From Microbotryum violaceum (lineage: Eukaryota), in the NCBI GenBank assembly GCA_001244265.2, contig CDLV01000015.1, forward strand, positions 930,001 through 994,000: a stretch of 64,000 nt of DNA. The letters are read 5' to 3'. Below, in pieces: positions 2,693 through 63,149 of this stretch. The notes under the pieces were generated by a model. It was not told the DNA's origin, did not search any database, and saw only the letters and a program-made list of their open reading frames with translations. Numbering within the stretch: the stretch's first letter is position 1; every line of letters starts with the position of its first letter. The position numbers and the translations under genes are program-made.

Positions 2693-3008
2693 GATTCCTG
2701 TCTCCACACTGGCAGCAGGGCCAGGGGTATCGCATCTTATCAACATCAGCAGCGAACGGGAGAGAGGGTCTACAAAAGATTGGTGAATCGCGCGAAGGTG
2801 GGAAGGTGGCTGTTGAGTTTTGCAGGGCTGACCCCCGGGCGCGATAGCGGACGGTTACAGCGAAACAGAGCGAGGTAGTACGCCTTACTTTGGTCATCAC
2901 TTCTCATCCACTTCCATACCATCTGACTTGCTTTGGTCGTTTTGGCGGTCGGAACGAGATGCAACAGTTGGAAAATGATCAAATGAATGGCACACGTGGC
3001 TAAAGCAG

Positions 3009-5480: not shown

Positions 5481-5784
5481 CGACAGAACACAAAGAGAAG
5501 AGGCTAAGGAAAGAGGGAGGAGTAGGTCTAGACCAGCTGCAAAACACTGGCACGGCGATGTAGTTGTCAGTTTGTTCAGTTGCTTTCGCGTGCCTCAGCC
5601 TGTATCCGCGTAACCGACACCGAGATGGTGTCTTCTCAACATGAGCAGCAACAGGAGAGGTATCTACAAAGGCGAGTGGGGCCACGTGACAGAAGGAAGA
5701 TTGCTTGTGATGGTATGGTGAGATATGCAGGGTGGACTCGGGAGGGCTCCCGCGCGGACCGCAGCGACATGCCGCAAACGCGCT

Positions 5785-5833
5785 GACGCTGCCAGACGCT
5801 GCCAGACGCTGCCAGACGCTGCCAGACGCTGCC
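5785..5833 (+). repeat. 10-bp tandem repeat (GACGCTGCCA x~5)
   Basis: Directly visible; ~300 bp upstream of the K1 start; also at ~17343-17391 and inverted at ~44887-44935. Confidence 0.9.
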
Positions 5834-6798
5834 GGAAAGCTCAGCCGAAGATGCGTCTCGAAAACCCCGGTTTTTGGCCGATTTGTACACCGAAAATCCC
5901 TTTCCAAGGGGTGTATGTATTCCGGTGTAAGGCAAATTTATCGGGTTGTGTTGAAAAAGTTAATCTACCATGAAAAATTATAAATGGGCTCGAAATGTAC
6001 AAATCGTGCACATACATCATGATCGGGCTGAGCTTTTGCGGGCCCTACGCTGGCTGACGCTGGCTGCCTCGGGCCGAAACTGGCTGCAGCTGGCTGGCCG
6101 AATCGGCGCGTCTATACGGTGGCCGGGGCCATATCCGATCTGCGCCGAATGGACGTTGGTCGCAGCTCATCCTGTAGGAGATGCAAACACTTTGATCTCC
6201 TGATCTTTGACCCCAGGTGTTACTTCATATAAAGCGACACTGTACAGCATCATATGGCTTAAGGCGATGTCTGAAATCCAAACCGTTCTCTCTTGAACCT
6301 TGAAGGAAAATCGCCAATGTTTTGAGCCCACCACAGCGTCAAGCTTACCTGCCTTCAAGCTGATGGCACTCTTCAGCGATCACCGTCGGGCCCCCGTACA
6401 GCACACCCACGCCATCAACACCGGCCTACACGAGGGTCACTTCATATTAGACTAGTGCACTCTTTGACCATGCTAAGGACGCCGTTACGCCGTTAGGAAT
6501 TCGGAAGAGGGCGCCGGCCCCAAGCTCAAGCGTCCAGTCGCTCGTGCTCGGAAACAGAAGGGAACACCGCGATCCCGATCGCTCTGATCTGCCGGTAAGC
6601 GTTCTCTCCGGTCCTATGTACATAGTACTTCCGGTACAGATGGATGAGACTCGATGAATCCGCAGTTGCTGCAGCTGCGTCGGTTGCTAAGACGACGTTG
6701 AGGCTGCGGGAAGGCCGCACAGATCCTAGTAGTACCGATCAAAAGTACCCAATTTCGGGGCGTCAAGGTAATTATCTTGGCTCTTTTTTTTCTTCTCG
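5832..6798. repeat. ~1 kb unclassified dispersed repeat
   Basis: Also at ~17390-18355, inverted at ~43908-44888, and as an independent diverged copy at 49805-50782. Confidence 0.8.
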
Positions 6799-7014
6799 TG
6801 CATTGCGATGTATGATGCGGTACTTATGAGTATGCCGATCGCATATTCTTCGAGCTGAAGCACCACACGCACAGAACGTGGATGATCCTCAGCTCCTAGA
6901 GACGTCACTGGAAGCCAATACCTCGGCGGCGCCGGCTCGTCACGTACTACAGGTCTGTATTCTTTCTCACTATCGATCAACGAGACACTGGCTGATTTAC
7001 AGGGTGCGACTACT

Positions 7015-7503
7015 TTGATAGCGAAGCTGGCGCGTTTGAAGCCAACAGCGACGAACCTTCTAGCGGGAGTACAAACGGGCTCCGGTGTCATTGTCCGGCC
7101 CGGAGTGGCGGTGTTGCTTCTCAACGGGGGACACACGGCGCATTCGACTTTTCGAATCTCATTCGACACCTTGCCGACCTCGATGTGTCCAGTCGACAGG
7201 GAGAGTGATCTCCCGCTGATGCTGCGTACCACCAAGCTCATCATTTGGGATGAAGCACCAATGGCGCATCGATTCGCCGTGGAAGCGGTCGACCGTGCAC
7301 TGCGTGATCTCCGAGAGACCGAGGAGCTCTTCGGCGGGGTGACCACGATCTTTGCGGGTCAGTTGGGCTCTTCCGCCTCCGCTTTGAACGACGGCAAGCT
7401 AACAAGGTTTCCGATCTGCAGGGAACTTTCGCCAATATCTTCCTGTCTGCCAAAGGAACCCTCGGTCAAATCGTCGATGCCTCCTCTCTCTCTCTCTCTC
7501 TGA
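7015..7503 (+). pseudogene. Helitron PIF1-like helicase fragment
   Basis: GVAVLLLNGGHTAHSTFRI and LIIWDEAPMAHRFAVEAVDRALRDL...FGGVTTIFAG are PIF1 motifs Ia-III; Walker A missing. Confidence 0.9.
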
Positions 7504-7878
7504 GTGAATTTCACCTTCTTCTCCAGCCCGAGCCTCGCTCTCGATTCTCGACTCTTACCACATCCGTCCCAAATTTCGAGCCTCCTCGAGCTCGGTCCCA
7601 GACTTACCCACCTCGTCTGATTCAGCTTGCCCAACTACCAGTAGTTGGTCTTTCTCTTTCCCTTCTGCAGCTCGGATCTCAAAGGTCGCACACTTGCTCT
7701 CTTCCTTCGTCCTCGTCTCTTTGTGAGAAGTCCCTAGAAAATTTCTCGCCTCATCCCTCGTCCCTCGCCCTTTCAGCACCTTTGTCTTTCTCGCTTTCCT
7801 CATACGTAGGTGCCAATGTGCGATCTAGTCACTTCCACGCACTTCGTGAATAAGTTCGTTCGCTTTACTACCTCTCTA

Positions 7879-9042
7879 TCTATATATAAAAAGGTCGATC
7901 CGCGACCCATGTACCTAAAATCGCTGTTTTGGACTGTGTTGCGGCCCTCTGGACCGCCTATCGTGAATGTACCAGTACAGTATTGCGTCTGCCGCACCTA
8001 CCTGTGATATTGGCGTCACGACCAGAAGTCATGTACAACCCTTTCCACATTTTCTGCGCCATAAAAGTCGAGCTACAGCCCGAGGACAAGTTTTGTTGAT
8101 TTTTGGCGGGGTGCCCAACTATTGAGCAGTTTGTATGTATAGCAAGCGCGTGGGTTTGCATGACACTTCTCCTACAGAGCTCGGGCGTGGTCCCGCTGTC
8201 CGTGCGGGCGCGGCTTACGTTGCCCGATGCGCCGTCGATCACGTGACGTACTGTTTACAACGCGACACCGGTTTTAGGGGCCGAACAACAACATGATCTT
8301 CCAGGGGCTGTAGATAGTCCCGCGATACTCTCTCTAATTCTTTCCTTTCCCTCCCACTCATCGAATTTTCGTGACAACCGCGCCGAGTCTCTGGCGCGAG
8401 GATAGCGTACCGCCGTACCATGAGAGACCATGGGCCTGCTCGAGCTTGCTCAAGCGCCTGCTGCTGAGCCGGCTGCTCTCCTCTCCTCTTCGTCCCGTTC
8501 CGATCGACTGAATCAGCTCCCCGCGCGTGATGGCAACCACTTGACCGATCTTGGTATTACGACCCGCATAAGCGTCCGCCGTACAGCTTTGTAGAACGGA
8601 CAGTGTGGTCAGCGCGAGGGCCCGATGGCCGATCCGACGCTGAGCTCGCCCCACCACCACCTCTTCCTGCGCAGAGGCAAGTGCGCAGGCCTCGAATCGA
8701 GCTCAAAGCACTCAAGCCCCACGTTCTCATCCGCGAGTACTTGGCCCCAGATGGCTGTGTGTGCCCACTGCAAGGCTCGACACTGAGAGTGCAAAGGACG
8801 AACCGGACACTTAGGCTGCACTGGGGCCGAATGACAAAGCATGCAACCGTCCGGATCTCATTGCACAAGTGCTTGAAGCCAAGTCCGGCAACAAGCGACA
8901 TGCAGGCTGTTTCGGCGATGAATGTAGGATGAATGGACTTGTTTCTTTGCTGTACTTCGTAAGGTGTTTTCTTAACCTCTGCGCTGAGATCATGTAGACT
9001 GTTCGAGTATCCTGCTATTTTTTGAATTTGATCCTCCCGTTA
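7879..9042 (+). mobile_element. Internally deleted Helitron derivative (5' end plus Rep remnants)
   Basis: A|TCTATATATAAAA 5' end; collinear with 21143-21950 and 23420-23632 (RPDLIA motif region); the 3' hairpin seen at 23626-23642 is truncated here. Confidence 0.75.
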
Positions 9043-9218
9043 TTTCATTTAGACCCACAATCACACGCTCATCGCTATACTGAACCTTGTAAGAAAGCAC
9101 AAAGTAAACCTGAGTTGCAGAGACAAACGAGAAGTCATACAACAACCACTGTAGTAAACAACAATAATCTGATCGGAGCCCGTGATGTGCGTGACACCGC
9201 AACGGGTAGCTTATGTAG

Positions 9219-11314
9219 CTACTTTAGTTGCATATTTTGCAGCGCAAGCGTGGACGCCAACATTTCCAAATCGTGGACCAGTTGGTCGAGCAAACGAGTA
9301 GCTCCATCGCGGCCACCCCACTCTGCAAACAAAGCAACTTCTTCTTCCGCGATTGTGGTAGTTTCGCTCACCATACCCAATTCGCAGTATTTGATCAATA
9401 CTTGGACAATTGATCAATGTCGGTCCAGAAATGCTTGTACCGTTCTAGCTGAGATCGCCAGCGGGTTCGGCTTCGAAATGGGACCGACTTCAAGATGGCC
9501 AATGTCGGAACGATGCGGTCCCAGTTGCGCCATGTCTTCTCATCCTCCCTCGACATCCTTGTAGGGTTGTTGGGTCCCAAAGGGCGGCTTGAAATGACAT
9601 ACAGAACGTCAAAGACAAGTTGCTCGATCTCATGCCAAATTTCATGTTTAATCCGAGACTTGTTGGTCGGGAGCATTGCGCGGGCCATAGTTGCTAGAGT
9701 GCCCTGCGTAGCCAAACCGCTCCAAGTTGGCGGCCGTGGACTTAGCTTAGAGAGTCGTGACAGGGTTTTTACTCACAACCGCTTCCAAACGCTCTTGTTC
9801 GGACAGGGCATCATCCAAGAAGCAAAAACAATCCGAAAGCATCAGAGCTCCGGTGCCGTCAGGCTTGATCACCAAGTTTTCGATCGAAAGGTCGCGATGT
9901 AGTACGTCGATTTGGTAAAGACTCCGTACCCCTGCGGACCATGCGCCGAACGATCGATTGTATCAGTCCCTACGCTCCCCCTTTTATTCCGATGTGAAGA
10001 CCGACCTTTGACCGCGTCAAGTATTAGTTGCGTCAGATGGTGCGTGGATTGGGCTTGTAGTATTGATTGATACAATTCTCGATACTCGATGAACTGTGTC
10101 GTCCTTGAAGTCACACCACCTGACAGACAACCCGCATCCCCACCGCAGACGTCGGGCGGAGCAGTACGAAAAGCTTGAGGATCCTGGTAGATCGTCTCCA
10201 CCGTGGCAAGCCCTTCGATTGTAGTGGAGTGGAACGTGTCCAATCGTTCCAAAAGGCAAATGGTGCGCTTGGATTGCTCGCTTGTGGGAAACGAGAAGGC
10301 GACGGTCTGCTCGGGTGAGCGTCGATACGAAGCGGTGGCGCCATCCTTTTCGACAGCAGCAGGATAGTAAGCCGTTCGGTTTCCAGTCATCGCGTCCTTG
10401 CGGTTGGTCGGTGCCCACAGACGAGCTCGATGGTGAACGTTCGCGGCCGATCCCGCCGAGGTAGGACGCTGATATACGAACGGCGGCAGAGTGTTGACCG
10501 TCAGCGGATAGGCGGCGCCCGAGACAATTGCGCCGAGGTTGAGTTCGGTGTCGACCACAAGTCGGACAAGGAACCGAAGGAGGACCTTGAAGCCTTCGGG
10601 CCGCGAACAGTTGAACTCGTTCGTCTGGACGATCCCGCCCGGCATATGACAAAGCACTCGGAAACGATCCACGGCTAGGGTGAAGCCGTAGACGAATTCA
10701 CGAAGAGCAACTGTCGACTTCAAGCGATAGAATCGCCGAAGTATCTGCCGAGCGGCGGCGCCTGCCTTGGGACCGCCTTTGATCTCTCCCGGAAAGAGGA
10801 CCTGGTTCACCTGGCGACGATCGGTCGGATGTCGACCCAATCGTGCTTCTTCGCGGCGCCAGTCTTCATTCGACATCTTCCATGCCGCCTCGATAGCTTC
10901 GTTCGAAGCAAAAGTGAACAGCGTCACTGCGTCGGGTGCTTGATCGGAATGATGTTGCTGCTCTTCCGACGTCGGAACGGGCACGCTCAAACCCCCACTA
11001 GCGACGATACGTCGAACCGCTGGACCCTGAAGCACGAATCGGCCATGCTCAGTCAAATGCATCACACCACTTCCCTCTGTATGGAGTGCTTTCGAACTTA
11101 CAACAGCATTAATTTGGTCAAAGAGAGCTTGCATCGGCTCCTCCTGCCCCCAGGTACCAGCAAACGTAACATCTTCGACCAAAGCGTCGAGTTCGGGGTC
11201 GGGCGACGCTATGAAGGTGTGGAGATTGGGCGAGTAAGGGATTCTGCTGCCAAGCTCCTCTTTCAGGCGCTCATCGATAGGTGTTTTACGATTCGAGTGC
11301 AGCCCGGGGGAGAG
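9219..11314 (-). CDS. FunK1-type nuclease-like + pseudokinase protein K2, allele A (5' end uncertain; 1-nt deletion near 9406)
   Basis: APDAVTLF...FPGEIK, FVYGFTL, spliced exon HRDLSIENL...GALMLSDCF, GTLATMA, WHEIEQLVF; the frameshift relative to the 41 kb copy may be real or a sequencing error. Confidence 0.78.
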
Positions 11315-13336
11315 CTGTAGTAGTATGTTATTGGATCAAAGTTGCGCGGCACTGCTTCCAAACGCTCTGTCAGTTTGATAACAAGCTCACTGACCCAACC
11401 AGTCTTGAGTACAACTTGACTTACTGCCGACGAGCTGAGCGTACAATAGGCTGTGGTGAGTGGCAGACCGCGAAGACTGGCACCGGGTCGAGGATTGCAA
11501 AGATAAACGAAAACGAGGTCGGAGTAGGCCTGGGCTCTGCGAGCAGTGGTCGTGGCGACGACGATGCGAAGACGAACGAGAGTGATGAGGACCCGCGAGA
11601 CAGACAGGCGGAGCGCTGACGAACGTCTAACCAGATGCGATCAGAGATTTATCAGATGCTTGTGCTCGACTGTGAGGCGGTGCATGGTGCAGGCAGGTGT
11701 GTGGTCGGCGGGAAGAGAGGAAGAGAGGAAAAGAGGAAAAGAGAAAGAGGCGGGCTTTCCATCGACGTTCGTTCAACGTTCAATCCACACTTCGCAGCAC
11801 TTCGCCCGAGACACGCGCACTCACGCGCAACGCGCTGCAACGCGCGGACTCCGCACGCGTGCGATTTACGATTTACGCGACTATGACTTGGACGAACTTG
11901 ATATCTGTCAGCGTGCATTGTGGCAAGGGCTTGTCGCACCAGCTGGCAAGTTTGGTATCAGCCCAACTTTCGAATCGTGTTGTACAGTAATACGAGTTGT
12001 GAAACCACCGGCGGTGTCTATATCGAAGCACCTGGGTCCCGATCAGATTACCGTGTCACCTCAACATGCCTGAGATTGAATCGCAGTCTGCCTGCATGGT
12101 GCAGTGCACGTGGGGCGTGTGGTCGCGTGAACAATTTCCAGCTCCCATCATCTTTCTTTCTTGGTGACCAAAAAGGTTTCATGGGCATTTGTGAGCATCT
12201 ATTACAGAACTTGCTGCGTAACCCTTCCCGGTGAAGGCCTGACAGAGCTACCGGAGCTGCCGCAGAAGGTTGACACGGAGTCCAAATGGGACTCAGGCTC
12301 GACGAGTTGCAATAGCCTGGCAGCAATGCAAAGGTCTCAGGGGATGGTCTTTTCGGCCTTTGCTGCAAGGATGGTATATGCTATGGTGTTCCAGCGGATC
12401 TAGTGTTTGTTAGGTTCTGTCTTCGAACAAGAGTAGCTGGAATCTATGAACTTAAATCTAATTTAATTTTGACGCGCCGATTCAGGCTCGCGCGCACCGA
12501 CCCTTTCTCTCAGCTGTGCTTCTCTAATCAATTAATCAGGCTTGATACAAAAAAAATAAAAATGCCCCACACACGCGGGCTCACGGGCGGTACTCGCGAC
12601 GCACATTCCCCTTTTGGGCCTTCACTGCGTCGTCGACGTTTCCTTGCCAGCTTCTGCGGCCGCGTCCACCACCTGTAGAGACATGTGCCTTCCTCAGGCC
12701 TCACCCCCACTGCAAGACTACCGAGTCCCAGCTGACGAAGTCGCTGACCGAGCCGCGTTCATGTCTTGCTGGACGCTTAGTACAGCTGCGAGCAGCTCGG
12801 GGTGAGTGCCTTGATACATCTGCGCTTGTTGCGACATGTACTCTGCATTTCTATTCTTACAACTTAGTTGTACGGGCATATAGCTCTGTAGCTCTTGTTG
12901 GGCAGCACGCTACTACTAATTCAGTTGCACGGTTTTCAGCAGACCCTTTGCCTCCTCTCGCGCCATCTGCGCCGATCCGTCCTTCTACAGTGACTTGTCT
13001 TGTCGCAAAGGTATGCTGAGCCGATCGATGGACTTCTCCACCGTCGGTTTCAGCCGACTGTCATCTAGAAGCTTTGGTCGCAAAGCTCCAAATTGTGAAC
13101 CCACCCACCGTCCCTATTCACCGGGTTTCTGAGGTTCTTTATTTCATTTGCTGAGATTCAGTCGTTTGATCGAGGTTCATGTTTTGTTTTCGTTTTTTTG
13201 TTTGTTTTGTACACGCCAATGTTGTCCTTCGTCTTGCTGCAACTCGAACCACTATTCCGCTACAACTCGCGCGAGTGGTCAGGGGAGTCGAAGCGTTGAA
13301 GGTGTTAGTAGTACTAGACCTTTCATTGATATCAGG

Positions 13337-14565: not shown

Positions 14566-17037
14566 CTACAAAATGATAGGCGAAACCGACGCCCTTTCCC
14601 GTCTCGTCTGCACAATCTCCTCAAGCAATTTCTCCAAATCCGCAACAAGCTGATCATACGAGAGCTCCCCTGAACCCCATTCACTCTTGAGGTATTCTTC
14701 TACTTCGACCCCGTTGTACATATAAGTTGACAAGTTGAGTCCGCAGTACTTCGCCACAATATCGATAAGGTCGGGAAGGCCATCCCAGAAACCCAAATAT
14801 GGCTTCAGCAGCTCCCTCCGGTTTGACTTATGTTGGACATATCCCACTTTGATATCGTAGGCACATTCTTCCCAATTCCAATCTTTCCACACCGCCGCGG
14901 CTTCTTCCGACAGCCTGCCCCAGCTTTCTGGTCCCGTGGGTTGCATGAAAACGACGAAAAGGATGACGTAAACGAGCGACTCGATGTCGTGCCACGGCTG
15001 ATGCAGAATCGTGCCGACATTGTCAATGAGTTGCCTTGCTCGGAATGCGAAGGTGCCCTGTGCGCGGTGATTGAACGAGGCTCTGATCAGCGGTGTAGCA
15101 CTGACACGCTACAGGACGAGAACGTAACCTCACAACTCGTTCCAGACGTGCTGCGTCGCCAAAGGGCCCGTCCATGAGCACGGCGAGATCATAATCGATT
15201 AGTACACCCTCTCCATCCGGTCCAACCATGATGTTTCCGGAAGAGACATCGCGATGCAGGATGCGCATGCGGTGCAGACTGCGCAGACCTGGGAAGAGAA
15301 GATCAATTCGGCATCAGATATCAAACATCCACTGCAACCCCAACTGATCCGAGCGAGATCAGAAACATACCTTTCACCACTCCAAGCGCGACTCGAATGA
15401 GCGCCTCGGTCGAGTCCACGGTCCAGATTGTCTCGAAGCAGCGCTCCTGAAAGGCCACCTCCATCGCCCTCGGCTTGAGCGCGGCGCTGTCGGCGTCGGA
15501 CTGGCCCTTGAGGAAGTGAGGTACAAGGCCGAAATTGACCTCTCGATGCACGTCCACAAAGTTCGTGAGACCTTCGCGCTCCTGAGGCGATGCCGAAGCA
15601 ATCAGCAGCCGGATCCGATCGTGTTCGTCGCAACGAGCCTCTTCCACAAACGAGACGGTCATCGCGTACTCCTGTTCGCCGTTGACACCCATCCGTGTCG
15701 CACGAACTCGCGACGCCGACGTCTGCAACCCGAGGACTGCGCCGCTACAAAACACCGTTTGCGCAATCTCGACCGAGTCGATCGTCGACCCGTCCCCGAG
15801 GTGATGAGCGAAAACTGGCACTCGCGGCGGCAGCGTGGCGACCGGGAACGGCAGAGGTGGGCCGTCGGGCTCCCCAGGCGAGGCGATCTTCCCAAGGTCA
15901 AGATCATTCAGGCTGAGCAGACGCGTGATAAACATCGAGAGGTGTCCATTCGATTCGGTGCATTCGATGTCGGACGAATAGAAGAGACCAGAGGGGGTGT
16001 GAAGATAGAGGGTCAAGATCGAACCGTCGAGCGTGAAGCCGAACGTGTGAGAGCGGATCGGTGACTCGGCAGCGAGCTTGCGCAGGTGATGCTTCACTCG
16101 CGTGGCCGGGTAGACCCACGCCGAATCCAAGGTGGGGTCTTGGCATATCTTCTTGCCACCCAGTACACCAATCGCGGCCACTTGTTCCCAGTTGCGGAAA
16201 TCGTCTTTTTCAGCGTCGACGTGATCTTGGGCCCAAGCCGACGCGAGCTCGGAATTGCCGTCGAAGGCCTGTCGCGACAGCACGACGAAATCGGGGAACT
16301 CGTTGGGGTCGTAGGCTTCGCGATCTTGGCGAAGAGGGGTTTTCACAAGTCTTCCTTGTGGTTCCTGTCCGATCCAGAGCGCGGGTAGATGAGGGACATC
16401 GAAACAACAGTAGGAGCAACATTGCGTTGGAAGAGATGCTCACCAAGTTCGGATCACCTAACTGCCACGTGATTCTCGGCGCCAGGCTCTGATTCATCGT
16501 TGACTCAGTCTGGCCGAGATCCGCCGCGGTACCGTCGCGACTGGGGCTGGGGCTCAGGAAAAAGTCCCTCAACGAGGACCACTCGATTTCATGGCCCTGA
16601 AATCCGGTTCTGTCTTCCGAGCTGGAAGGGAACATCCATGTGCGCAGGACCCATGGCAGTTGAGCGGTGAACGAGCGAGCGAGAGGCGGCGAGGGCACGC
16701 GTGGCGGGACCTTCGGCGATGTGATCGGCGATCCCGTGGGCGACGTGATTGCTGATCCTGCAGGGGAAGTGATCGCTGATCCTGCTGGCGAACTGATCGC
16801 TGATCCTGCTGGCGAAGTGGTTGGTGATTCTGTGAAGGACCCCTTCGGCGAGCCCGTCGATGGAGCGGTAGTTGCTTTCGTAGAGCCACGCGATCGGCGA
16901 GATGCCGGCGAGGACGTGGTCGACGGGGGTGAGCCGGAATGCTGCTGTGCGACATCTCGGGCGGGGTGGGCAGGCGGTGACGCCGGCTCTGGACCGCCAA
17001 CGTCCACGCATTTGTCGCCAGACTGCGCGCCAGCCAT
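14566..17037 (-). CDS. FunK1-type kinase K1, second copy of allele A
   Basis: ORF translations identical to 3009-5480. Confidence 0.88.
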
Positions 17038-20450: not shown

Positions 20451-28359
<7,909 letters not shown>

Positions 28360-38161: not shown

Positions 38162-39393
38162 GTAGGTTGATGAGCATTGGCATACAGCCCAACTCCGTGT
38201 CTTCGTCGACGTAAAGTGTAAAGTGTGCTAGTTCAGTGTCTCGCCCAGGCGTGCTGTTCACGCCAAATCGTTTCGATCGGCTTTGCTGAACGGCATCGGA
38301 TGGGATCAACAATTGATGGCGAGTCTTGCGGTGACGTGGCAGATTACGTTGTGTTGGCTCGAAGGCCGAAGAAGTGCGGACGTTGGGCATAGATCAGGAC
38401 AGGTAGGGGGCTGAGAAAGAGCTCGATGCGATTGTCGCGCCGCGGGCGACACGTCACTTCTACTAACTTCCCGTGGGCCAATGACAACTTCCCCACCTTT
38501 CTGCCAACTTCCCCCACGCCTCTGCCAAGTTCGCAAACTTCATTGCCTAAGCGGGCCGCAATCGGGCCTCAAGGCCTCAAGCGCGCGCGCGCGCCTGAAG
38601 TTGGCGAAGTTGGCACTCCCTGAACACCGCCAGCGCCCCGGTAAGTGGACCTGAATGTAAATGTAAATGTGATCAGGTGCTTCGATATAGACCCCGCCGG
38701 TGGTTCCACAACTCGTATTACTGTACAACACGATTCGAAAGTTGGGCTGATACCAAACTTGCCAGCTGGTGCGACAAGCCCTTGCCACAATGCACGCTGA
38801 CAGATATCAAATTCGTCCAAGTCATAGTCGCGTAAATCGTAAATCGCACGCGTGCGGAGTCCGCGCGTTGCAGCGCGTTGCGCGTGAGTGCGCGTGTCTC
38901 GGGCGAAGTGCTGCGAAGTGTGGATTGAACGTTGAACGAACGTCGATGGAAAGCCCGCCTCTTTCTCTTTTCCTCTTTTCCTCTCTTCCTCTCTTCCCGC
39001 CGACCACACACCTGCCTGCACCATGCACCGCCTCACAGTCGAGCACAAGCATCTGATAAATCTCTGATCGCATCTGGTTAGACGTTCGTCAGCGCTCCGC
39101 CTGTCTGTCTCGCGGGTCCTCATCACTCTCGTTCGTCTTCGCATCGTCGTCGCCACGACCACTGCTCGCAGAGCCCAGGCCTACTCCGACCTCGTTTTCG
39201 TTTATCTTTGCAATCCTCGACCCGGTGCCAGTCTTCGCGGTCTGCCACTCACCACAGCCTATTGTACGCTCAGCTCGTCGGCAGTAAGTCAAGTTGTACT
39301 CAAGACTGGTTGGGTCAGTGAGCTTGTTATCAAACTGACAGAGCGTTTGGAAGCAGTGCCGCGCAACTTTGATCCAATAACATACTACTACAG

Positions 39394-41490
39394 CTCTCCC
39401 CGGGCTGCACTCGAATCGTAAAACACCTATCGATGAGCGCCTGAAAGAGGAGCTTGGCAGCAGAATCCCTTACTCGCCCAATCTCCACACCTTCATAGCG
39501 TCGCCCGACCCCGAACTCGACGCTTTGGTCGAAGATGTTACGTTTGCTGGTACCTGGGGGCAGGAGGAGCCGATGCAAGCTCTCTTTGACCAAATTAATG
39601 CTGTTGTAAGTTCGAAAGCACTCCATACAGAGGGAAGTGGTGTGATGCATTTGACTGAGCATGGCCGATTCGTGCTTCAGGGTCCAGCGGTTCGACGTAT
39701 CGTCGCTAGTGGGGGTTTGAGCGTGCCCGTTCCGACGTCGGAAGAGCAGCAACATCATTCCGATCAAGCACCCGACGCAGTGACGCTGTTCACTTTTGCT
39801 TCGAACGAAGCTATCGAGGCGGCATGGAAGATGTCGAATGAAGACTGGCGCCGCGAAGAAGCACGATTGGGTCGACATCCGACCGATCGTCGCCAGGTGA
39901 ACCAGGTCCTCTTTCCGGGAGAGATCAAAGGCGGTCCCAAGGCAGGCGCCGCCGCTCGGCAGATACTTCGGCGATTCTATCGCTTGAAGTCGACAGTTGC
40001 TCTTCGTGAATTCGTCTACGGCTTCACCCTAGCCGTGGATCGTTTCCGAGTGCTTTGTCATATGCCGGGCGGGATCGTCCAGACGAACGAGTTCAACTGT
40101 TCGCGGCCCGAAGGCTTCAAGGTCCTCCTTCGGTTCCTTGTCCGACTTGTGGTCGACACCGAACTCAACCTCGGCGCAATTGTCTCGGGCGCCGCCTATC
40201 CGCTGACGGTCAACACTCTGCCGCCGTTCGTATATCAGCGTCCTACCTCGGCGGGATCGGCCGCGAACGTTCACCATCGAGCTCGTCTGTGGGCACCGAC
40301 CAACCGCAAGGACGCGATGACTGGAAACCGAACGGCTTACTATCCTGCTGCTGTCGAAAAGGATGGCGCCACCGCTTCGTATCGACGCTCACCCGAGCAG
40401 ACCGTCGCCTTCTCGTTTCCCACAAGTGAACAATCCAAGCGCACCATTCGCCTTTTGGAACGATTGGACACGTTCCACTCCACTACAATCGAAGGGCTTG
40501 CCACGGTGGAGACGATCTACCAGGATCCTCAAGCTTTTCGTACTGCTCCGCCCGACGTCTGCGGTGGGGATGCGGGTTGTCTGTCAGGTGGTGTGACTTC
40601 AAGGACGACACAGTTCATCGAGTATCGAGAATTGTATCAATCAATACTACAAGCCCAATCCACGCACCATCTGACGCAACTAATACTTGACGCGGTCAAA
40701 GGTCGGTCTTCACATCGGAATAAAAGGGGGGAGCGTAGGGACTGATACAATCGATCGTTCGGCGCATGGTCCGCAGGGGTACGGAGTCTTTACCAAATCG
40801 ACGTACTACATCGCGACCTTTCGATCGAAAACTTGGTGATCAAGCCTGACGGCACCGGAGCTCTGATGCTTTCGGATTGTTTTTGCTTCTTGGATGATGC
40901 CCTGTCCGAACAAGAGCGTTTGGAAGCGGTTGTGAGTAAAAACCCTGTCACGACTCTCTAAGCTAAGTCCACGGCCGCCAACTTGGAGCGGTTTGGCTAC
41001 GCAGGGCACTCTAGCAACTATGGCCCGCGCAATGCTCCCGACCAACAAGTCTCGGATTAAACATGAAATTTGGCATGAGATCGAGCAACTTGTCTTTGAC
41101 GTTCTGTATGTCATTTCAAGCCGCCCGTTGGGACCCAACAACCCTACAAGGATGTCGAGGGAGGATGAGAAGACATGGCGCAACTGGGACCGCATCGCTA
41201 CGGCATTGGCCATCTTGAAGTCGATCCAATTTCAGATCCCAATCGAATGGCGATCTCAGCTTGAACGGTATAAGCATTTTTGGACCGACATTGACCAATT
41301 GTTCCAAGTACTGTTCAAGTACTGCGGGCTGGGCTTGGTGAGCGAAAAGACCACAATCGCGGAAGAAGAAGTTGCTTTGTTTGCAGAGTGGGGTGGGCGC
41401 GATGGAGCTACTCGTTTGCTCGACCAACTGGTCCACGATTTGGAAATGTTGGCGTCCACGCTTGCGCTGCAAAATATGCAACTAAAGTAG
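39394..41490 (+). CDS. FunK1-type nuclease-like + pseudokinase protein K2, allele C (5' end uncertain)
   Basis: Exons ..40701, 40777-40931, 41005-41490 with GT-AG introns, open through to the TAG; PD...EIK; HRDLSIEN; LMLSD in place of LIDYD. Confidence 0.82.
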
Positions 41491-41666
41491 CTACATAAGC
41501 TACCCGTTGCGGTGTCACGCACATCACGGGCTCCGATCAGATTATTGTTGTTTACTACAGTGGTTGTTGTATGACTTCTCGTTTGTCTCTGCAACTCAGG
41601 TTTACTTTGTGCTTTCTTACAAGGTTCAGTATAGCGATGAGCGTGTGATTGTGGGTCTAAATGAAA

Positions 41667-42830
41667 TAACGGGAGGATCAAATTCAAAAAATAGCAGGAT
41701 AATCGAACAGTCTACATGATCTCAGCGCAGAGGTTAAGAAAACACCTTACGAAGTACAGCAAAGAAACAAGTCCATTCATCCTACATTCATCGCCGAAAC
41801 AGCCTGCATGTCGCTTGTTGCCGGACTTGGCTTCAAGCACTTGTGCAATGAGATCCGGACGGTTGCATGCTTTGTCATTCGGCCCCAGTGCAGCCTAAGT
41901 GTCCGGTTCGTCCTTTGCACTCTCAGTGTCGAGCCTTGCAGTGGGCACACACAGCCATCTGGGGCCAAGTACTCGCGGATGAGAACGTGGGGCTTGAGTG
42001 CTTTGAGCTCGATTCGAGGCCTGCGCACTTGCCTCTGCGCAGGAAGAGGTGGTGGTGGGGCGAGCTCAGCGTCGGATCGGCCATCGGGCCCTCGCGCTGA
42101 CCACACTGTCCGTTCTACAAAGCTGTACGGCGGGCGCTTATGCGGGTCGTAATACCAAGATCGGTCAAGTGGTTGCCATCACGCGCGGGGAGCTGATTCA
42201 GTCGATCGGAACGGGACGAAGAGGAGAGGAGAGCAGCCGGCTCAGCAGCAGGCGCTTGAGCAAGCTCGAGCAGGCCCATGGTCTCTCATGGTACGGCGGT
42301 ACGCTATCCTCGCGCCAGAGACTCGGCGCGGTTGTCACGAAAATTCGATGAGTGGGAGGGAAAGGAAAGAATTAGAGAGAGTATCGCGGGACTATCTACA
42401 GCCCCTGGAAGATCATGTTGTTGTTCGGCCCCTAAAACCGGTGTCGCGTTGTAAACAGTACGTCACGTGATCGACGGCGCATCGGGCAACGTAAGCCGCG
42501 CCCGCACGGACAGCGGGACCACGCCCGAGCTCTGTAGGAGAAGTGTCATGCAAACCCACGCGCTTGCTATACATACAAACTGCTCAATAGTTGGGCACCC
42601 CGCCAAAAATCAACAAAACTTGTCCTCGGGCTGTAGCTCGACTTTTATGGCGCAGAAAATGTGGAAAGGGTTGTACATGACTTCTGGTCGTGACGCCAAT
42701 ATCACAGGTAGGTGCGGCAGACGCAATACTGTACTGGTACATTCACGATAGGCGGTCCAGAGGGCCGCAACACAGTCAAAAACAGCGATTTTAGGTACAT
42801 GGGTCGCGGATCGACCTTTTTATATATAGA
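41667..42830 (-). mobile_element. Internally deleted Helitron derivative (inverted copy of 7879-9042)
   Basis: Reverse-complement identity with 7879-9042. Confidence 0.75.
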
Positions 42831-43205
42831 TAGAGAGGTAGTAAAGCGAACGAACTTATTCACGAAGTGCGTGGAAGTGACTAGATCGCACATTGGCACC
42901 TACGTATGAGGAAAGCGAGAAAGACAAAGGTGCTGAAAGGGCGAGGGACGAGGGATGAGGCGAGAAATTTTCTAGGGACTTCTCACAAAGAGACGAGGAC
43001 GAAGGAAGAGAGCAAGTGTGCGACCTTTGAGATCCGAGCTGCAGAAGGGAAAGAGAAAGACCAACTACTGGTAGTTGGGCAAGCTGAATCAGACGAGGTG
43101 GGTAAGTCTGGGACCGAGCTCGAGGAGGCTCGAAATTTGGGACGGATGTGGTAAGAGTCGAGAATCGAGAGCGAGGCTCGGGCTGGAGAAGAAGGTGAAA
43201 TTCAC

Positions 43206-43694
43206 TCAGAGAGAGAGAGAGAGAGGAGGCATCGACGATTTGACCGAGGGTTCCTTTGGCAGACAGGAAGATATTGGCGAAAGTTCCCTGCAGATCGGAA
43301 ACCTTGTTAGCTTGCCGTCGTTCAAAGCGGAGGCGGAAGAGCCCAACTGACCCGCAAAGATCGTGGTCACCCCGCCGAAGAGCTCCTCGGTCTCTCGGAG
43401 ATCACGCAGTGCACGGTCGACCGCTTCCACGGCGAATCGATGCGCCATTGGTGCTTCATCCCAAATGATGAGCTTGGTGGTACGCAGCATCAGCGGGAGA
43501 TCACTCTCCCTGTCGACTGGACACATAGAGGTCGGCAAGGTGTCGAGTGAGATTCGAAAAGTCGAATGCGCCGTGTGTCCCCCGTTGAGAAGCAACACCG
43601 CCACTCCGGGCCGGACAATGACACCGGAGCCCGTTTGTACTCCCGCTAGAAGGTTCGTCGCTGTTGGCTTCAAACGCGCCAGCTTCGCTATCAA
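43206..43694 (-). pseudogene. Helitron PIF1-like helicase fragment (inverted copy)
   Basis: Same LIIWDEAPM fragment with one amino-acid difference. Confidence 0.9.
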
Positions 43695-45240
43695 AGTAGT
43701 CGCACCCTAATCAGCCAGTGTCTTGCTAATCGATATTGAGAAAGATTACAGACCTGTAGTACGTGACGAGCCGGCGCCGCCGGCGTATTGGCTTCCAGTG
43801 ACGTCTCTAGGAGCTGAGGATCATCCACGTTCTGTGCGTGTGGTGCTTCAGCTCGAAGAATATGCGATCGGCATACTCATAAGTACCGCATCATACATCG
43901 CAATGCACGAGAAGAAAAAAAAGAGCCAAGATAATTACCTTGACGCCCCGAAATTGGGTACTTTTGATCGATACTACTAGGATCTGTGCGGCCTTCCCGC
44001 AGCCTCAACGTCGTCTTAGCAACGTCGTCTTAGCAACCGACGCAGCTGCAGCAACTGCGGATTCATCGAGTCTCATCCATCTGTACCGGAAGGACTATGT
44101 ACATAGGACCGAAGAGAACGCTTACCGGCAGATCAGAGCGATCGGGATCGCGGTGTTCCCTTCTGTTTCCGAGCACGAGCGACTGGACGCTTGAGCTTGG
44201 GGCCGGCGCCCTCTTCCGAATTCCTAACGGCGTAACGGCGTCCTTAGCATGGTCAAAGAGTGCACTAGTCTAATATGAAGTGACCCTCGTGTAGGCCGGT
44301 GTTGATGGCGTGGGTGTGCTGTACGGGGGCCCGACGGTGATCGCTGAAGAGTGCCATCAGCTTGAAGGCAGGTAAGCTTGACGCTGTGGTGGGCTCAAAA
44401 CATTGGCGATTTTCCTTCAAGGTTCAAGAGAGAACGGTTTGGATTTCAGACATTGCCTTAAGCCATATGATGCTGTACAGTGTCGCTTTATATGAAGTAA
44501 CACCTGGGGTCAAAGATCAGGAGATCAAAGTGTTTGCATCTCCTACAGGACGAGCTGCGACCAACGTCCATTCGGCGCAGATCGGATATGGCCCCGGCCA
44601 CCGTATAGACGCGCCGATTCGGCCAGCCAGCTGCAGCCAGTTTCGGCCCGAGGCAGCCAGCGTCAGCCAGCGTAGGGCCCGCAAAAGCTCAGCCCGATCA
44701 TGATGTATGTGCACGATTTGTACATTTCGAGCCCATTTATAATTTTTCATGGTAGATTAACTTTTTCAACACAACCCGATAAATTTGCCTTACACCGGAA
44801 TACATACACCCCTTGGAAAGGGATTTTCGGTGTACAAATCGGCCAAAAACCGGGGTTTTCGAGACGCATCTTCGGCTGAGCTTTCCGGCAGCGTCTGGCA
44901 GCGTCTGGCAGCGTCTGGCAGCGTCTGGCAGCGTCAGCGCGTTTGCGGCATGTCGCTGCGGTCCGCGCGGGGAGCCCTCCCGAGTCCACCCTGCATATCT
45001 CACCATACCATCACAAGCAATCTTCCTTCTGTCACGTGGCCCCACTCGCCTTTGTAGATACCTCTCCTGTTGCTGCTCATGTTGAGAAGACACCATCTCG
45101 GTGTCGGTTACGCGGATACAGGCTGAGGCACGCGAAAGCAACTGAACAAACTGACAACTACATCGCCGTGCCAGTGTTTTGCAGCTGGTCTAGACCTACT
45201 CCTCCCTCTTTCCTTAGCCTCTTCTCTTTGTGTTCTGTCG

Positions 45241-47712
45241 ATGGCTGGCGCGCAGTCTGGCGACAAATGCGTGGACGTTGGCGGTCCAGAGCCGGCGTCA
45301 CCGCCTGCCCACCCCGCCCGAGATGTCGCACAGCAGCATTCCGGCTCACCCCCGTCGACCACGTCCTCGCCGGCATCTCGCCGATCGCGTGGCTCTACGA
45401 AAGCAACTACCGCTCCATCGACGGGCTCGCCGAAGGGGTCCTTCACAGAATCACCAACCACTTCGCCAGCAGGATCAGCGATCAGTTCGCCAGCAGGATC
45501 AGCGATCACTTCCCCTGCAGGATCAGCAATCACGTCGCCCACGGGATCGCCGATCACATCGCCGAAGGTCCCGCCACGCGTGCCCTCGCCGCCTCTCGCT
45601 CGCTCGTTCACCGCTCAACTGCCATGGGTCCTGCGCACATGGATGTTCCCTTCCAGCTCGGAAGACAGAACCGGATTTCAGGGCCATGAAATCGAGTGGT
45701 CCTCGTTGAGGGACTTTTTCCTGAGCCCCAGCCCCAGTCGCGACGGTACCGCGGCGGATCTCGGCCAGACTGAGTCAACGATGAATCAGAGCCTGGCGCC
45801 GAGAATCACGTGGCAGTTAGGTGATCCGAACTTGGTGAGCATCTCTTCCAACGCAATGTTGCTCCTACTGTTGTTTCGATGTCCCTCATCTACCCGCGCT
45901 CTGGATCGGACAGGAACCACAAGGAAGACTTGTGAAAACCCCTCTTCGCCAAGATCGCGAAGCCTACGACCCCAACGAGTTCCCCGATTTCGTCGTGCTG
46001 TCGCGACAGGCCTTCGACGGCAATTCCGAGCTCGCGTCGGCTTGGGCCCAAGATCACGTCGACGCTGAAAAAGACGATTTCCGCAACTGGGAACAAGTGG
46101 CCGCGATTGGTGTACTGGGTGGCAAGAAGATATGCCAAGACCCCACCTTGGATTCGGCGTGGGTCTACCCGGCCACGCGAGTGAAGCATCACCTGCGCAA
46201 GCTCGCTGCCGAGTCACCGATCCGCTCTCACACGTTCGGCTTCACGCTCGACGGTTCGATCTTGACCCTCTATCTTCACACCCCCTCTGGTCTCTTCTAT
46301 TCGTCCGACATCGAATGCACCGAATCGAATGGACACCTCTCGATGTTTATCACGCGTCTGCTCAGCCTGAATGATCTTGACCTTGGGAAGATCGCCTCGC
46401 CTGGGGAGCCCGACGGCCCACCTCTGCCGTTCCCGGTCGCCACGCTGCCGCCGCGAGTGCCAGTTTTCGCTCATCACCTCGGGGACGGGTCGACGATCGA
46501 CTCGGTCGAGATTGCGCAAACGGTGTTTTGTAGCGGCGCAGTCCTCGGGTTGCAGACGTCGGCGTCGCGAGTTCGTGCGACACGGATGGGTGTCAACGGC
46601 GAACAGGAGTACGCGATGACCGTCTCGTTTGTGGAAGAGGCTCGTTGCGACGAACACGATCGGATCCGGCTGCTGATTGCTTCGGCATCGCCTCAGGAGC
46701 GCGAAGGTCTCACGAACTTTGTGGACGTGCATCGAGAGGTCAATTTCGGCCTTGTACCTCACTTCCTCAAGGGCCAGTCCGACGCCGACAGCGCCGCGCT
46801 CAAGCCGAGGGCGATGGAGGTGGCCTTTCAGGAGCGCTGCTTCGAGACAATCTGGACCGTGGACTCGACCGAGGCGCTCATTCGAGTCGCGCTTGGAGTG
46901 GTGAAAGGTATGTTTCTGATCTCGCTCGGATCAGTTGGGGTTGCAGTGGATGTTTGATATCTGATGCCGAATTGATCTTCTCTTCCCAGGTCTGCGCAGT
47001 CTGCACCGCATGCGCATCCTGCATCGCGATGTCTCTTCCGGAAACATCATGGTTGGACCGGATGGAGAGGGTGTACTAATCGATTATGATCTCGCCGTGC
47101 TCATGGACGGGCCCTTTGGCGACGCAGCACGTCTGGAACGAGTTGTGAGGTTACGTTCTCGTCCTGTAGCGTGTCAGTGCTATACCGCTGACCGGAGCCT
47201 CGTTCAATCACCGCGCACAGGGCACCTTCGCATTCCGGGCAAAGAATCTCATCGAATATTTCGGCAAGCTTTTGCATCAGCCGTGGCACGACATCGAGTC
47301 GCTCGTTTACGTCATCCTTTTCGTCGTTTTCATGCAACCCACGGGACCAGAAAGCCGGGGCAGGATGTCGGAAGAAGCCGCGACGGTGTGGAAGAATTGG
47401 AACTGGGACGAATGTGCCTACATTACCAAAGTGGCGTTTGTCCAACGGCAGTCAAACCGGAGGGAGCTGCTGAAGCCATATTTGTGTTTCTGGGAAGGCC
47501 TTCCCGACCTCGTTGCTATTGTGGCGAAGTACTGCGGACTCAACTTGTCAACTTACATGTACGGCAGGGTCGAAGCAGAAGAATACCTCAAGAGCGAATG
47601 GGGTTCAGGTGAGCTCTCGCATGATCAACTTGTTGCGGATTTGGAGATATTGCTCGAGGAGATTGTGCAGACGAGACGGGAAAGGGCGTCGGTTTCGCCT
47701 ATCATTGTGTAG
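45241..47712 (+). CDS. FunK1-type kinase K1, allele C; 4 exons, 744 aa
   Basis: Exons 45241-45834, 45914-46907, 46990-47144, 47221-47712 (2235 nt, in frame, GT-AG introns); HRDVSSGN, LIDYDLA, WHDIES. Confidence 0.9.
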
Positions 47713-48625
47713 CTGCTTTAGCCACGTGTGCCATTCATTTGATCATTTTCCAACTGTTGCATCTCGTTCCGACCGCCAAAACGACCAAAGCAAAGGCAGA
47801 TGGCACGGAAGTGGATGAGAAATGACGACCAAAGTAAGGCAGAGATTACTACCTTGCTCTGTCTCGCTCCGCCACCGACCCCCTACCGACCGTAGTCACG
47901 CCCGGCAGTCACTCCTGTATAACTCTTTAGCCACCTTCTTCCCTTCGCACGTTCACCGGTTTCTTTCAGGTCCTCTCTCCCGTTTGCTGCTGATATGATG
48001 CGAGACCGCTGGCTCTGCTGTGGAGACAGTCCTGAACCTTCCTCTTCCCACCGCTCATTTTTACACTTCTGAAACCGCAGTTGAAAAAGTCGGGGAAGCT
48101 ACCCGAACTTGTCGCGCTAGTGGCCAACTGCTGCTGCCAAGGTTCGTCTCCTATCATACACGGCGACTGGGAAGCGGTCGAGAAGTGACACCTTGCGGTC
48201 CACCGTCCGCCGGGGGGGTGAGGTCCCTTGTGACCAGATTGTTAGGATACAGAAGAAACAAGAGAAGTCTATGGATCCGTTTGCCAGTGTGTCGACTTCG
48301 AGTGAAACGCAAGGCAAAGCTACAAATGTACAGTTTGCGACAGTATGTGTACTCCGAGCATGGATAAAGGGACTGGTGTGAGACCATCATCCCACGGCTC
48401 GGTGTGAACCATTCATACATGAGAGCAGATATCGGTCTCGATTTCTCGGCTAGCAAGCCTCGGTCAGATCAGTTGAAGCGGCCATGTGATTGGGTCAACA
48501 AAGGCTGCGGGCCGAGTCCGACGTCAAGTCTATCAATAGGGACTGGAACAAGCAAACGCTGGAGACGCGCGATGAAACCAATGACATACAAAGATAAAAG
48601 ACCTATTCATATGATACTGGTGTTG

Positions 48626-49131
48626 TCATCGCTTCTGTTTCCTCTGAACAGTCTCGAGAAGCAAATGGTCCAAATCCGCAAAGAGATGGTCGTGAGAGAG
48701 CTCACCCGAGGTCCCATCCTTTCTCTAGCCATTCACCTTCTGCGACCTTGCTGCAAGTAAAAACCGACGGGCCGAGTCCGCAGTACTTCGCATCAATAGC
48801 AATGCGATCAGGAAGGCTTTTCCAGAAATCCAGATATGGCTCCGGCGACTCCCTCTGGCCCGACCCGGCGCAATTGAACAAACCCCTCTTTGAAATCGTA
48901 GCGCCAGAGTTCAGAGTTCCAATCATTCCACCGCGCAGTGGCCACTTCTGACATGCGGCTGCCTAGCCCCGTGGGTTACGTGAAAACGACGAAACGGATG
49001 ACGTAAACGAGCGACTCGATGTCGTGCCACGGCTGATGCAGAATCGTGCCGACATTGTCGATGAGTTGCCTTGCTCGGAATGCGAAGGTGCCCTGTGCGC
49101 GATGGTTGAAAGAGGCTCCGATCAGCGGTGT
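48626..49131 (-). pseudogene. Orphan last exon of a K1-type kinase
   Basis: Intron tail plus GTFAFRARQLIDNVGTILHQPWHDIESLVYV, in-frame stop, frameshift, then PYLDFWKSLPD..AKYCGL..GELSHD; no upstream exons. Confidence 0.88.
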
Positions 49132-49804
49132 TCTCCCGGGAAGGGTTTGGTCGATGTGGTCGCGGATACTTGTGGCGAAGCAGCTCTTTGGGACGGAGCG
49201 AGAAGGAAAAGCCCGGCGCGACGAGACGGTGTCGAACGTTTTCAGATCGTCCTCAAGGATGCGCAGCAAAAATCAAGCGGCTTGAACGACCGAAATCCTG
49301 CTCCTGTCGAACAGTCAATCGATTCGGTCCTGATGATTCCGCTCGGTGTGTAAACTTGAACACGGAACATCGAGCCGCAAAGCGTCAAGCCATAGACCCA
49401 TTCCTGAATCCCGTTAGTTTGTAGTCATCCGATAATATCGCCGATAGGGCTGTGCGTCGGCTAGGGCTTGGTCCAACTCATTCGCCTTGAGCTCCATGAC
49501 GATGTAAATGTCCTCCATAAGTCGATCGTCGTGGATCCGGCGTTTGTGCTGTGCTTCCCACGATTTTCTCGTCGCATTGTCCATCTTCCACGCCTCGACC
49601 TTCTTCGGCGTGTTCACGTGTGGGAAGAGGGGGACCACATCGGCGCAGTGGTCGTTGGAGCCCACCTGACCAGACGAGGTCGGAACTATCGCATTTGACC
49701 CCCCGCGCGCGACGAGATCTCGGTCCGAAGCTGAAGCCTGCAGTGCAGAACGGCGAGATCAGCCGCCTGCTCATGACAGGGATTAGAAGATGAGCTGAAA
49801 GGCC

Positions 49805-50782
49805 GAGAAGAAAAAAAAGAGCCAAGATAATTACCTTGACGCCCCGAAATTGGGTACTTTTGATCGATACTACTAGGATCTGTGCGGCCTTCCCGCAGCC
49901 TCAACGTCGTCTAGCAACCGACGCAGCTGCAGCAACTGCGGATTCATCGAGTCTCGTCCATCTGTACCGGAAGGACTATGTACATAGGACCGAAGAGAAC
50001 GCTTACCGGCAGATCAGAGCGATCGGGATCGCGGTGTTCCCTTCTGTTTCCGAGCACGAGCGACTGGACGCTTGAGCTTGGGGCCGGCGCCCTCTTCCGG
50101 ATTCCTGACGGCGTAACGGCGTCCTTAGCATGGTTGAAGAGTGCACCAGTCTAATATGAAGTGATCCTCGTGTAGGCCGGTGTTGATGGTGTGGGTGTGC
50201 TGTACGGGAGCCCGACAGTGATCGCTGACGAGTGCCATCAGCTTGAAGGCAGGTAAGCTTGACGATGTGGTGGGCTCAAAAAATTGGCGATTTTCCTTCC
50301 AGGTTCAAGAGAGAACGGTTTGGATTTCAGACATCTCCTTAAGCCATATGATGCTGTACAGGGTCACTTGATATGAAGTAACACCTGGGGTCAAAGATCA
50401 GGAGATCAAAGTGTTTGCATCTCCTACAGGATGGGCTGCGACCAACACGGTCCACTGCACTCGCCCCACTCGCCCCGGCCACCGTAGACGCACCGATTCA
50501 GCCAGCCAGCTGCAGCCCGAGGCAGCCCGAGGCAGCCCGAGTCCGCCCGAGTCAGCCGGCGTCAGCCAGCGTAGGGCCCGCGAAAGCTCAGACCAATCAC
50601 GATGTATGTGCACGATTTGTACTTTTCGGGCCCATTTATGCCTTGTGATATGCGTGATTTTTCATGGTAGAGTAGCTTTTTCAACACAACCCGATAAATT
50701 TGCCTTACACCGGAATACATACACCCCTTGGATAGGGATTTTCGGCGTTCAGATCGGCCAAAAACCGGGCTGAGCTTTCCGG
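49805..50782. repeat. Diverged independent copy of the ~1 kb repeat
   Basis: Collinear with ~43908-44888, with scattered substitutions and a different 10-mer array (CAGCCCGAGG). Confidence 0.85.
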
Positions 50783-50794
50783 GGTCCTCCCAGC

Positions 50795-57294: not shown

Positions 57295-63149
<5,855 letters not shown>

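Follow-up and report, generated by a model that had tools for sequence, protein, structure and literature searches.

A 64,000-nucleotide (nt) stretch of Microbotryum violaceum DNA (assembly GCA_001244265.2, contig CDLV01000015.1, positions 930,001 to 994,000 of the forward strand; hereafter the window, in whose numbering all coordinates are given) contains three copies of a gene for a predicted protein kinase of the fungal FunK1 family (PF17667), which we denote K1, together with one K1 fragment and two copies of a second FunK1 gene, K2. Two of the K1 copies, A and C, share identical first, second and third exons and have markedly different last exons, and it is the origin of this mosaic that is addressed here. 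The window DNA is eukaryotic and intron-bearing, with a G+C content of ~54%, and at the protein level it best matches annotated sequences from Microbotryum silenes-dioicae, M. saponariae, and M. lychnidis-dioicae.

K1, from a Microbotryum species, has four exons and encodes a product of 744 amino acids. Copy C occupies positions 45241..47712 of the plus strand (exons 45241-45834, 45914-46907, 46990-47144, and 47221-47712), as delineated from splice sites, translation, tblastn, and Pfam matches; an annotated protein of M. silenes-dioicae (P0004; 744 amino acids) fits exactly these four exons in tblastn. Exon 4 of copy C (47221..47712, plus strand) comprises 163 codons and the stop, and covers the equivalent of the P+1 loop/APE motif, helix F, and the remaining C-lobe. 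Copy A, defined by alignment and translation, lies on the minus strand at 3009..5480 (exons 5480-4887, 4807-3814, 3731-3577, and 3500-3009), and copy B (14566..17037, minus strand) duplicates A in tandem at a distance of 11557 nt and has the same coding sequence (0 coding differences). Taken singly, exon 3 of the window gene passes the gathering score of PF17667 (32.3 bits, cutoff 24.1), with 22.2 bits for exon 2 and 16.1 bits for exon 4, and P0004, which is unlike copy A at 8 of 744 amino acids, scores 103 bits (E=2e-29). The K1 translation carries the strings LHRDVSSGNIM and IDYDLA, which the family profile places on the HRD...N and DFG motifs of PknB; the predicted K1 kinase thus has the kinase-fold motifs HRD...N and Dx(D/G). 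K2, which also matches PF17667, is a distant paralog of K1. The family is multicopy in this lineage, with 11 Microbotryum proteins matching at E<=1e-5. The passages on FunK1 in PMC3203195 describe lineage-specific expansions of this family in nonsyntenic regions of Paracoccidioides and Coccidioides and note that its substrate-specificity region is variable.

Copies A and C occupy the arms of a 9.3-kb inverted duplication, in which positions 2713-12034 match 48020-38674 with 98.06% identity over 9358 columns (self-BLAST). Arm A (2713..12034) and arm C (38674..48020, inverted relative to arm A) differ in 189 of the 9358 columns; they are separated by ~26 kb, with transposons in between. Each arm also carries K2, on the plus strand at 39714-41490 in arm C and on the minus strand at 10993-9219 in arm A. 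Copy B belongs to a tandem duplication (939-7865 and 12496-19422; period 11557 nt) that is 99.84% identical, with 5 mismatches and 6 gaps over 6930 columns, and its unit (12496-19422) lacks K2. Hence copies A, B, and C are paralogs within one assembly, and A and C, which the original prediction had called alleles, are paralogous copies on the arms of an inverted repeat.

Divergence between the K1 copies begins within intron 3

Comparison of copies A and C yields two sharply different segments. Over exons 1-3, none of the 1743 nt differ, in line with the prediction that these exons translate identically, and the arms are free of any difference over 2210 nt (44973-47182), a stretch that includes exons 1-3, both introns between them, and upstream DNA. 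The first difference is at position 47183, which the original prediction gave as the start of its divergent stretch; it falls within intron 3, exon 4 itself beginning at 47221. From this point, a divergent block (47183..48020 in copy C, plus strand) extends through the end of intron 3, exon 4, the 3' untranslated region (3'UTR), and the 3' flank as far as the repeat terminus, with 116 of 845 columns differing, that is, 116 of the 189 differing columns of the arms. In exon 4, 45 of 492 nt differ, giving 28 replacement codons and 11 codons with synonymous changes only, with no stop and no indel; the by-eye estimates of these counts in the original prediction were exact on a recount of the 163 codons, and the string pairs that it had singled out (RQLIDNVGTI/KNLIEYFGKL, DIKVGYVQHK/ITKVAFVQRQ, and NG/GR) are all found in the translations. 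Exon 4 and exons 1-3 differ in divergence to a highly significant degree (Fisher p=5e-31).

The divergence level rises from 9% in exon 4 to ~20% in the 3' flank, interrupted by an island at the stop codon and 3'UTR (47710..47795, plus strand) in which there are 0 substitutions in 86 columns. The remaining 232 columns of the repeat beyond this island contain 42 substitutions and 25 gap columns. Accordingly, the earlier description of the flanks as near-identical is accurate for the 5' side (0 differences over 44973-47182), whereas on the 3' side it applies only to the 86-column island. The divergence is therefore not limited to exon 4 but sits at the edge of the duplicated unit. Within the block, the differences are clustered, leaving identical runs of 86 and 83 nt; in a run-length permutation over 648 columns with 54 differences, the second-longest run has P=5e-5. 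A mobile element ending in intron 3 was considered as the source of the boundary and rejected because homology continues past it, at lower identity, to position 48020.

Synonymous sites follow the same partition. By the pairwise Nei-Gojobori method (NG86), exon 4 of A and C shows 13.5 differences on 107.5 synonymous sites and 31.5 on 381.5 replacement sites, which corresponds to 0.137 synonymous (dS) and 0.087 nonsynonymous (dN) substitutions per site and a dN/dS of 0.64 (p=0.19 against 1), whereas exons 1-3 show 0 synonymous differences on ~445 sites (p=6e-11 for the contrast). Selection acting on the protein could not make synonymous and noncoding sites diverge in one segment while those of the adjoining segment stay unchanged, and exons 1-3 must therefore have a history different from that of exon 4. 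Microbotryum genomes display a C-to-T bias at TCG resembling repeat-induced point mutation; such mutation was rejected as the source of the differences, given that the 45 changes in exon 4 comprise 25 transitions and 20 transversions and form a mosaic pattern.

K2 carries a divergent island of its own. The last exon of K2 copy C (41005..41490, plus strand) includes a divergent island at 41127-41397, and that of K2 copy A (9219..9703, minus strand) has the corresponding island at 9312-9581, with a 1-nt deletion at 9405 that causes a frameshift. The island spans 270 nt, is ~11% divergent, is bordered by identity on both sides, and accounts for 30 of the remaining 73 differing columns of the arms. 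Between A and C, it contains 14 replacement codons and 10 codons with synonymous changes only; over codons 61-120 of the exon, dS is 0.36 and dN is 0.125, with a dN/dS of 0.35 (range for K2, 0.33-0.35). Thus, the two stretches with FunK1 last exons, the K1 stretch including its 3' flank, hold 146 of the 189 differing columns in ~12% of the alignment. When the exon translations are matched by position, the K2 island is the segment homologous to the most variable stretch of K1, following a conserved lysine. The main exon of K2 is 94% identical to M. lychnidis-dioicae MVLG_03326, the model of which ends before the last exon, and a comparison of the K2 last exon with longer proteins gave no match.

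Last-exon types, independent contigs, and genomic surroundings

Phylogenies of the two parts of K1 are in conflict. Exon 4 places copy A with P0004 of M. silenes-dioicae (support 100/100) and copy C outside this group, level with the M. saponariae orthologue P0003; a clade uniting A and C is rejected (log-likelihood difference 51.8, approximately unbiased test p=8e-6). The tree of exons 2-3 has the identical A and C sequences nested within P0004 (97/97). The amino acid differences tell the same story: over exons 1-3, A differs from C at 0 and from P0004 at 4 of 581 positions, whereas over exon 4, the numbers out of 163 are 28 for A and C, 4 for A and P0004, 22 for C and P0003, and 31 for A and P0003. 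At the 28 variable sites, the M. saponariae state is shared by C at 15, by A at 6, and by neither at 7, as read from the alignment by eye. The C-type exon 4 is old and the more ancestral-looking of the two.

Further last-exon sequences point to exchange among more than two lineages. Fragment D (48629..49131, minus strand), found by tblastn and alignment, is a broken third last exon of the K1 type that contains frameshifts and lies tail to tail with copy C. Over its first ~120 nt, homologous to copy C coordinates 47208-47327, D is identical to A at 116 of 120 nt and to C at 107 of 120, with the A-D identity being ~68% elsewhere. Judging from this pattern, the shared tract, which spans the RQLIDNVGTI patch, is probably a conversion tract between the A and D lineages. 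In addition, a predicted protein of 659 amino acids (P0014) consists of an N terminus different from that of K1, K1 exons 2-3 (1 of 383 amino acids different from the window), and a D-type last exon read out of frame. P0014 is thus an additional K1 copy from a related genome, its last exon being of a third kind, and its architecture implies that at least three last-exon types exist behind near-identical upstream exons. Close to fragment D, a fourth copy of the K1 upstream region is present at 49804-50769, in the opposite orientation and ~90% identical to 5866-6798 and 43908-44854; together, it and fragment D look like a rearranged older copy of the repeat unit. The upstream-like region is adjoined by a 174-nt direct repeat (50783-50956 and 51157-51330; 94% identical, 374 nt apart).

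Contigs of four public sequencing runs (X1, X2, X10, and X16), representing four organisms, were compared with the window; the 24 runs listed were all available as contigs, which cannot show absence, copy number, or expression. In X1, a 234-nt contig matches 47069-47302 with 3 other letters and is of the C type at all 10 listed sites between 47243 and 47272. This contig spans position 47183 with 114 and 119 nt on either side and joins exon 3 and intron 3 to exon 4 with a C-type beginning; its differences from the window show that X1 constitutes independent data. The junction is thus present in independent sequence, and the possibility that an assembly chimera at ~47180 created the boundary, raised along with the original prediction, is contradicted. 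Two further X1 contigs continue the C-type sequence, one of 360 nt on 47326-47685 with 1 other letter, the other of 1261 nt, which covers the C flank (47764-47900) with 0 other letters. The same flank is also found in X2 with 0 other letters, and X16 contains 47838-47900.

C-type sequence from the middle of the exon is present in the remaining organisms as well, in X2 (47357-47479, 0 other letters), X10 (47326-47495, 2 other letters), and X16 (47326-47492, 0 other letters), with A-type contigs alongside. In these three runs, C-type contigs with 0-2 other letters are, within the exon, confined to its middle (47326-47495). At the sites of the 5' patch, only the A type occurs in X10 (all ten sites) and X16 (47243-47247 and 47267-47272, where covered). 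At the end of the exon, every X2 contig is of the A type at 47620, 47628, 47648, and 47655 and of the C type at 47610 and 47707. Contig cover has gaps, with none from X2 on 47243-47272 and no A-type contig from X1 on 47556-47655, which are not evidence of absence. Thus, the borders of the A/C mosaic vary from organism to organism, which fits an ongoing exchange of short tracts. X10, which we guess to be an RNA run, includes a 749-nt contig that is unspliced through both introns and is uninformative on expression or splicing.

The kinase repeats sit in a transposon-rich region. Between K1 and K2 in the repeat unit, a 205-amino acid open frame on the plus strand (6886..7500, also 18443-19057) encodes a fragment of a PIF1-like helicase (PF05970, E=6e-24), possibly left by a Helitron; around this frame, A and C differ in a small patch and by two indels (6608-7182). 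Retrotransposon open frames at 26322-28359, 34677-36260, 52595-54049, 55321-56133, and 59841-62804 encode gag and aspartyl protease, zf-RVT, and copia-type reverse transcriptase, integrase, and gag domains. A repeat of ~151 nt occurs five times in both orientations (29273-29423, 30772-30922, 55200-55348, 58313-58463, and 59166-59316; 87-100% identical), and its copies may be terminal repeats of a mobile element. Rfam and tRNA scans of the window yielded a single RNA gene, a tRNA-Ser (anticodon TGA) at 29043-29115 on the minus strand, identified by both ARAGORN and Rfam, far from K1.

Origin of the mosaic

We consider it probable, at roughly 60%, that the mosaic was caused by recombination or gene conversion between old FunK1 paralogs, which spared exon 4 and the flank at the edge of the unit. 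Under this scenario, K1-A and K1-C would be two old paralogous loci, one on each arm of the K2-bearing inverted repeat, and recombination between the arms in this lineage, either by interlocus gene conversion or by duplicative replacement through nonallelic homologous recombination, would have erased all differences upstream of the middle of intron 3. The last exon and 3' flank, positioned at the edge of the homologous unit, would have escaped overwriting and kept the older divergence between the loci. That divergence was presumably already a patchwork, built by earlier short conversion tracts among the A-, C-, and D-type last exons, and the amino acid differences would be the leftovers of weak purifying selection at positions variable in the family rather than the outcome of rapid adaptation after duplication. 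Patchwork conversion or recombination with an older paralog had been one of the two causes put forward in the original prediction, and it is supported by the diverged synonymous and noncoding sites, the conflict between trees, the clustering of differences, the tract shared by A and D, and the other A/C mosaics in contigs. The direction and number of the events, and the edge position as the reason for the escape of exon 4, are what we infer from this pattern.

Several observations weigh against this account. The K2 island is interior to the repeat rather than at its edge, which leaves no room for an edge effect; a better fit is import from a third paralog, which may have been broken. Alternatively, the island may be a stretch too diverged to be homogenized, and selection keeping two versions is possible, although neither the dN/dS nor the frameshift indicates it. 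Of the 321 letters at 46714-47034, 11 and 25, respectively, are unlike the window in the two X1 contigs that cover this stretch, so X1 does not derive from the strain of the window and its copies cannot be matched to those of the window one to one. Moreover, short-read contigs cannot tie the identical upstream sequence to a given copy, so that assembly or polishing could have made the arms look more alike than they are. Finally, the dN/dS of exon 4, which is statistically indistinguishable from 1, is on the high side for a kinase domain.

A scenario in which the whole 9.3-kb unit was duplicated recently, and short ectopic conversion tracts from diverged FunK1 paralogs at other places in the genome then overwrote parts of the K1 and K2 last exons in one arm, would accommodate some of these points, although we regard it as unlikely. 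Such a history would account for a K2 island (30 columns; 9312-9581 in A) that is flanked by identity, has a dS of 0.36, and bears a frameshift as if copied from a broken donor, and for the tract that A shares with the broken copy D. The islands of divergence are moreover found only where other paralogs offer homology, as reflected in the concentration of differing columns in the last-exon stretches. However, the K1 divergence continues ~225 nt past the stop codon into noncoding flank, up to the repeat end, and the presence of the C-type flank in runs of three organisms indicates that the C locus, with a 3' end of its own, is old and not a recent import. Nor was a donor found within the 64-kb window by self-comparison.

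Could the changed residues themselves have been selected? A profile of 67 FunK1 relatives was aligned to PknB (PDB profile alignment), giving a linear placement of the K1 residues. The K1 string GTFAFRA aligns to GTAQYLSPE of PknB, that is, the P+1 loop/APE motif, and HDIESLVYV aligns to helix F, so that the first patch of changes (residues 589-598) directly follows the substrate-binding P+1 loop. In protein kinases generally, the remainder of the C-lobe holds helices G to I, and the other K1 patches probably lie in this part. The PF17667 model ends at residue 616 of P0004, which places 21 of the 28 variable sites in the poorly conserved C-terminal region of the family. Among the 67 relatives, the columns of the 28 variable sites have a mean entropy of 3.22 bits, compared with 2.70 bits for the 135 unchanged sites (p=2e-4), and none of the 28 falls in a strongly conserved column. 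The replacements also lean toward the conservative (mean BLOSUM62 score of 0.07, compared with -0.45 for random replacements; P=0.058). Such placement in variable columns, combined with the conservative lean, is characteristic of a loosely constrained region under weak purifying selection.

One functional reading of these positions is that the hypervariable C-lobe segment of FunK1 proteins, after the conserved lysine and approximately at helices G to H, could be a specificity cassette that selection keeps distinct while conversion homogenizes the rest. It starts from the observation that K1 and K2 each keep a diverged segment (dS of 0.14 and 0.36, respectively) in a 9-kb background that is ~99.5-100% identical, with at least three kinds of last exon following near-identical exons 1-3, and we hold it to be an unlikely proposal.

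We judge it quite improbable that diversifying or balancing selection on a specificity surface of the C-lobe, the second cause envisaged in the original prediction, was the main driver, whether through quick replacements after duplication or through two specificities shielded from homogenization. Some features are compatible with such selection, namely, that K1 residues 644-658 and K2 exon codons 65-81, matched by position, differ in the homologous segment after the conserved lysine, that the first K1 patch immediately follows the P+1 loop/APE equivalent, that the dN/dS of 0.64 is not different from 1, and that the A-type lineage has 15 derived states compared with 6 for C (alignment read by eye). 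Nevertheless, no pairwise NG86 estimate exceeds 1 in either K1 exon 4 or K2, and synonymous and noncoding divergence, which protein selection cannot elevate, is raised just as much. The variable sites are those that vary in the family at large, the replacements lean conservative, and K2 copy A is frameshifted. Selection may still have contributed to the differences, but the case for a specificity surface under diversifying selection is not supported.

An assembly artefact, either a chimeric join near 47180 or upstream identity produced by repeat collapse or polishing, is the explanation to which we give the least credence: the arms and copy B do share near-perfect identity over kilobases, and the region is rich in transposons, a setting in which assembly and polishing are prone to error, and the independent evidence consists of contigs rather than long or raw reads, but the X1 contig of 234 nt, from different data, bridges the junction, and contigs identical to the window are found at 46700-47120 (X16), 46700-46954 (X2), 47326-47492 (X16), and over the C flank (X1, X2, and X16).

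If recombination between old paralogs is indeed the cause, the locus shows how the copies of a large, fungus-specific kinase family of unknown function, which expands in lineage-specific repeat-rich regions, evolve: most of K1 would be kept identical by recombination, with the C-terminal part beside the substrate-binding loop staying distinct and being exchanged in short tracts. Estimates of dN/dS per exon, or calls of rapid divergence, on such paralogs call for caution in that they mirror mixed histories and not selection. Should the retained segments prove to set the choice of substrate or partner, they would offer a natural entry point to FunK1 function.

Comparison with known systems

As in the FunK1 expansions treated in the relevant passages of PMC3203195, the window contains several copies of PF17667 paralogs in a repeat-rich region, and the first K1 patch is located just after the specificity region described there as variable. 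Unlike the situation at this locus, those passages report duplication and expansion rather than conversion mosaics. In the library searched, no paper names FunK1 together with Microbotryum, and the portions of the Microbotryum genome paper PMC4469406 that we consulted contain no mention of FunK1. The mechanism is an ordinary one, interlocus gene conversion or concerted evolution that stops at a sharp boundary, and only the case is new.

Two well-known human systems offer close parallels. The fetal globin genes HBG1 and HBG2 are homogenized upstream of a point within intron 2 and have diverged downstream of that point. The K1 copies resemble this pair in being linked paralogs that are identical up to an intronic point and diverged beyond it, with conflicting trees for the two parts. 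They differ from the globin pair in that they reside on inverted arms of a 9.3-kb unit with two kinase genes and in that their divergence extends to the edge of the unit and is in turn mosaic, involving a third, broken copy. The palindromes of the human Y chromosome are large inverted repeats that undergo gene conversion from arm to arm and normally lack islands of deep divergence. Similarly, the inverted arms carrying K1 and K2 are ~99.5-100% identical outside of small islands; unlike the arms of the Y palindromes, they lie ~26 kb apart, with transposons between them, and harbor two deep islands of divergence, with dS values of 0.14 in K1 and 0.36 in K2.

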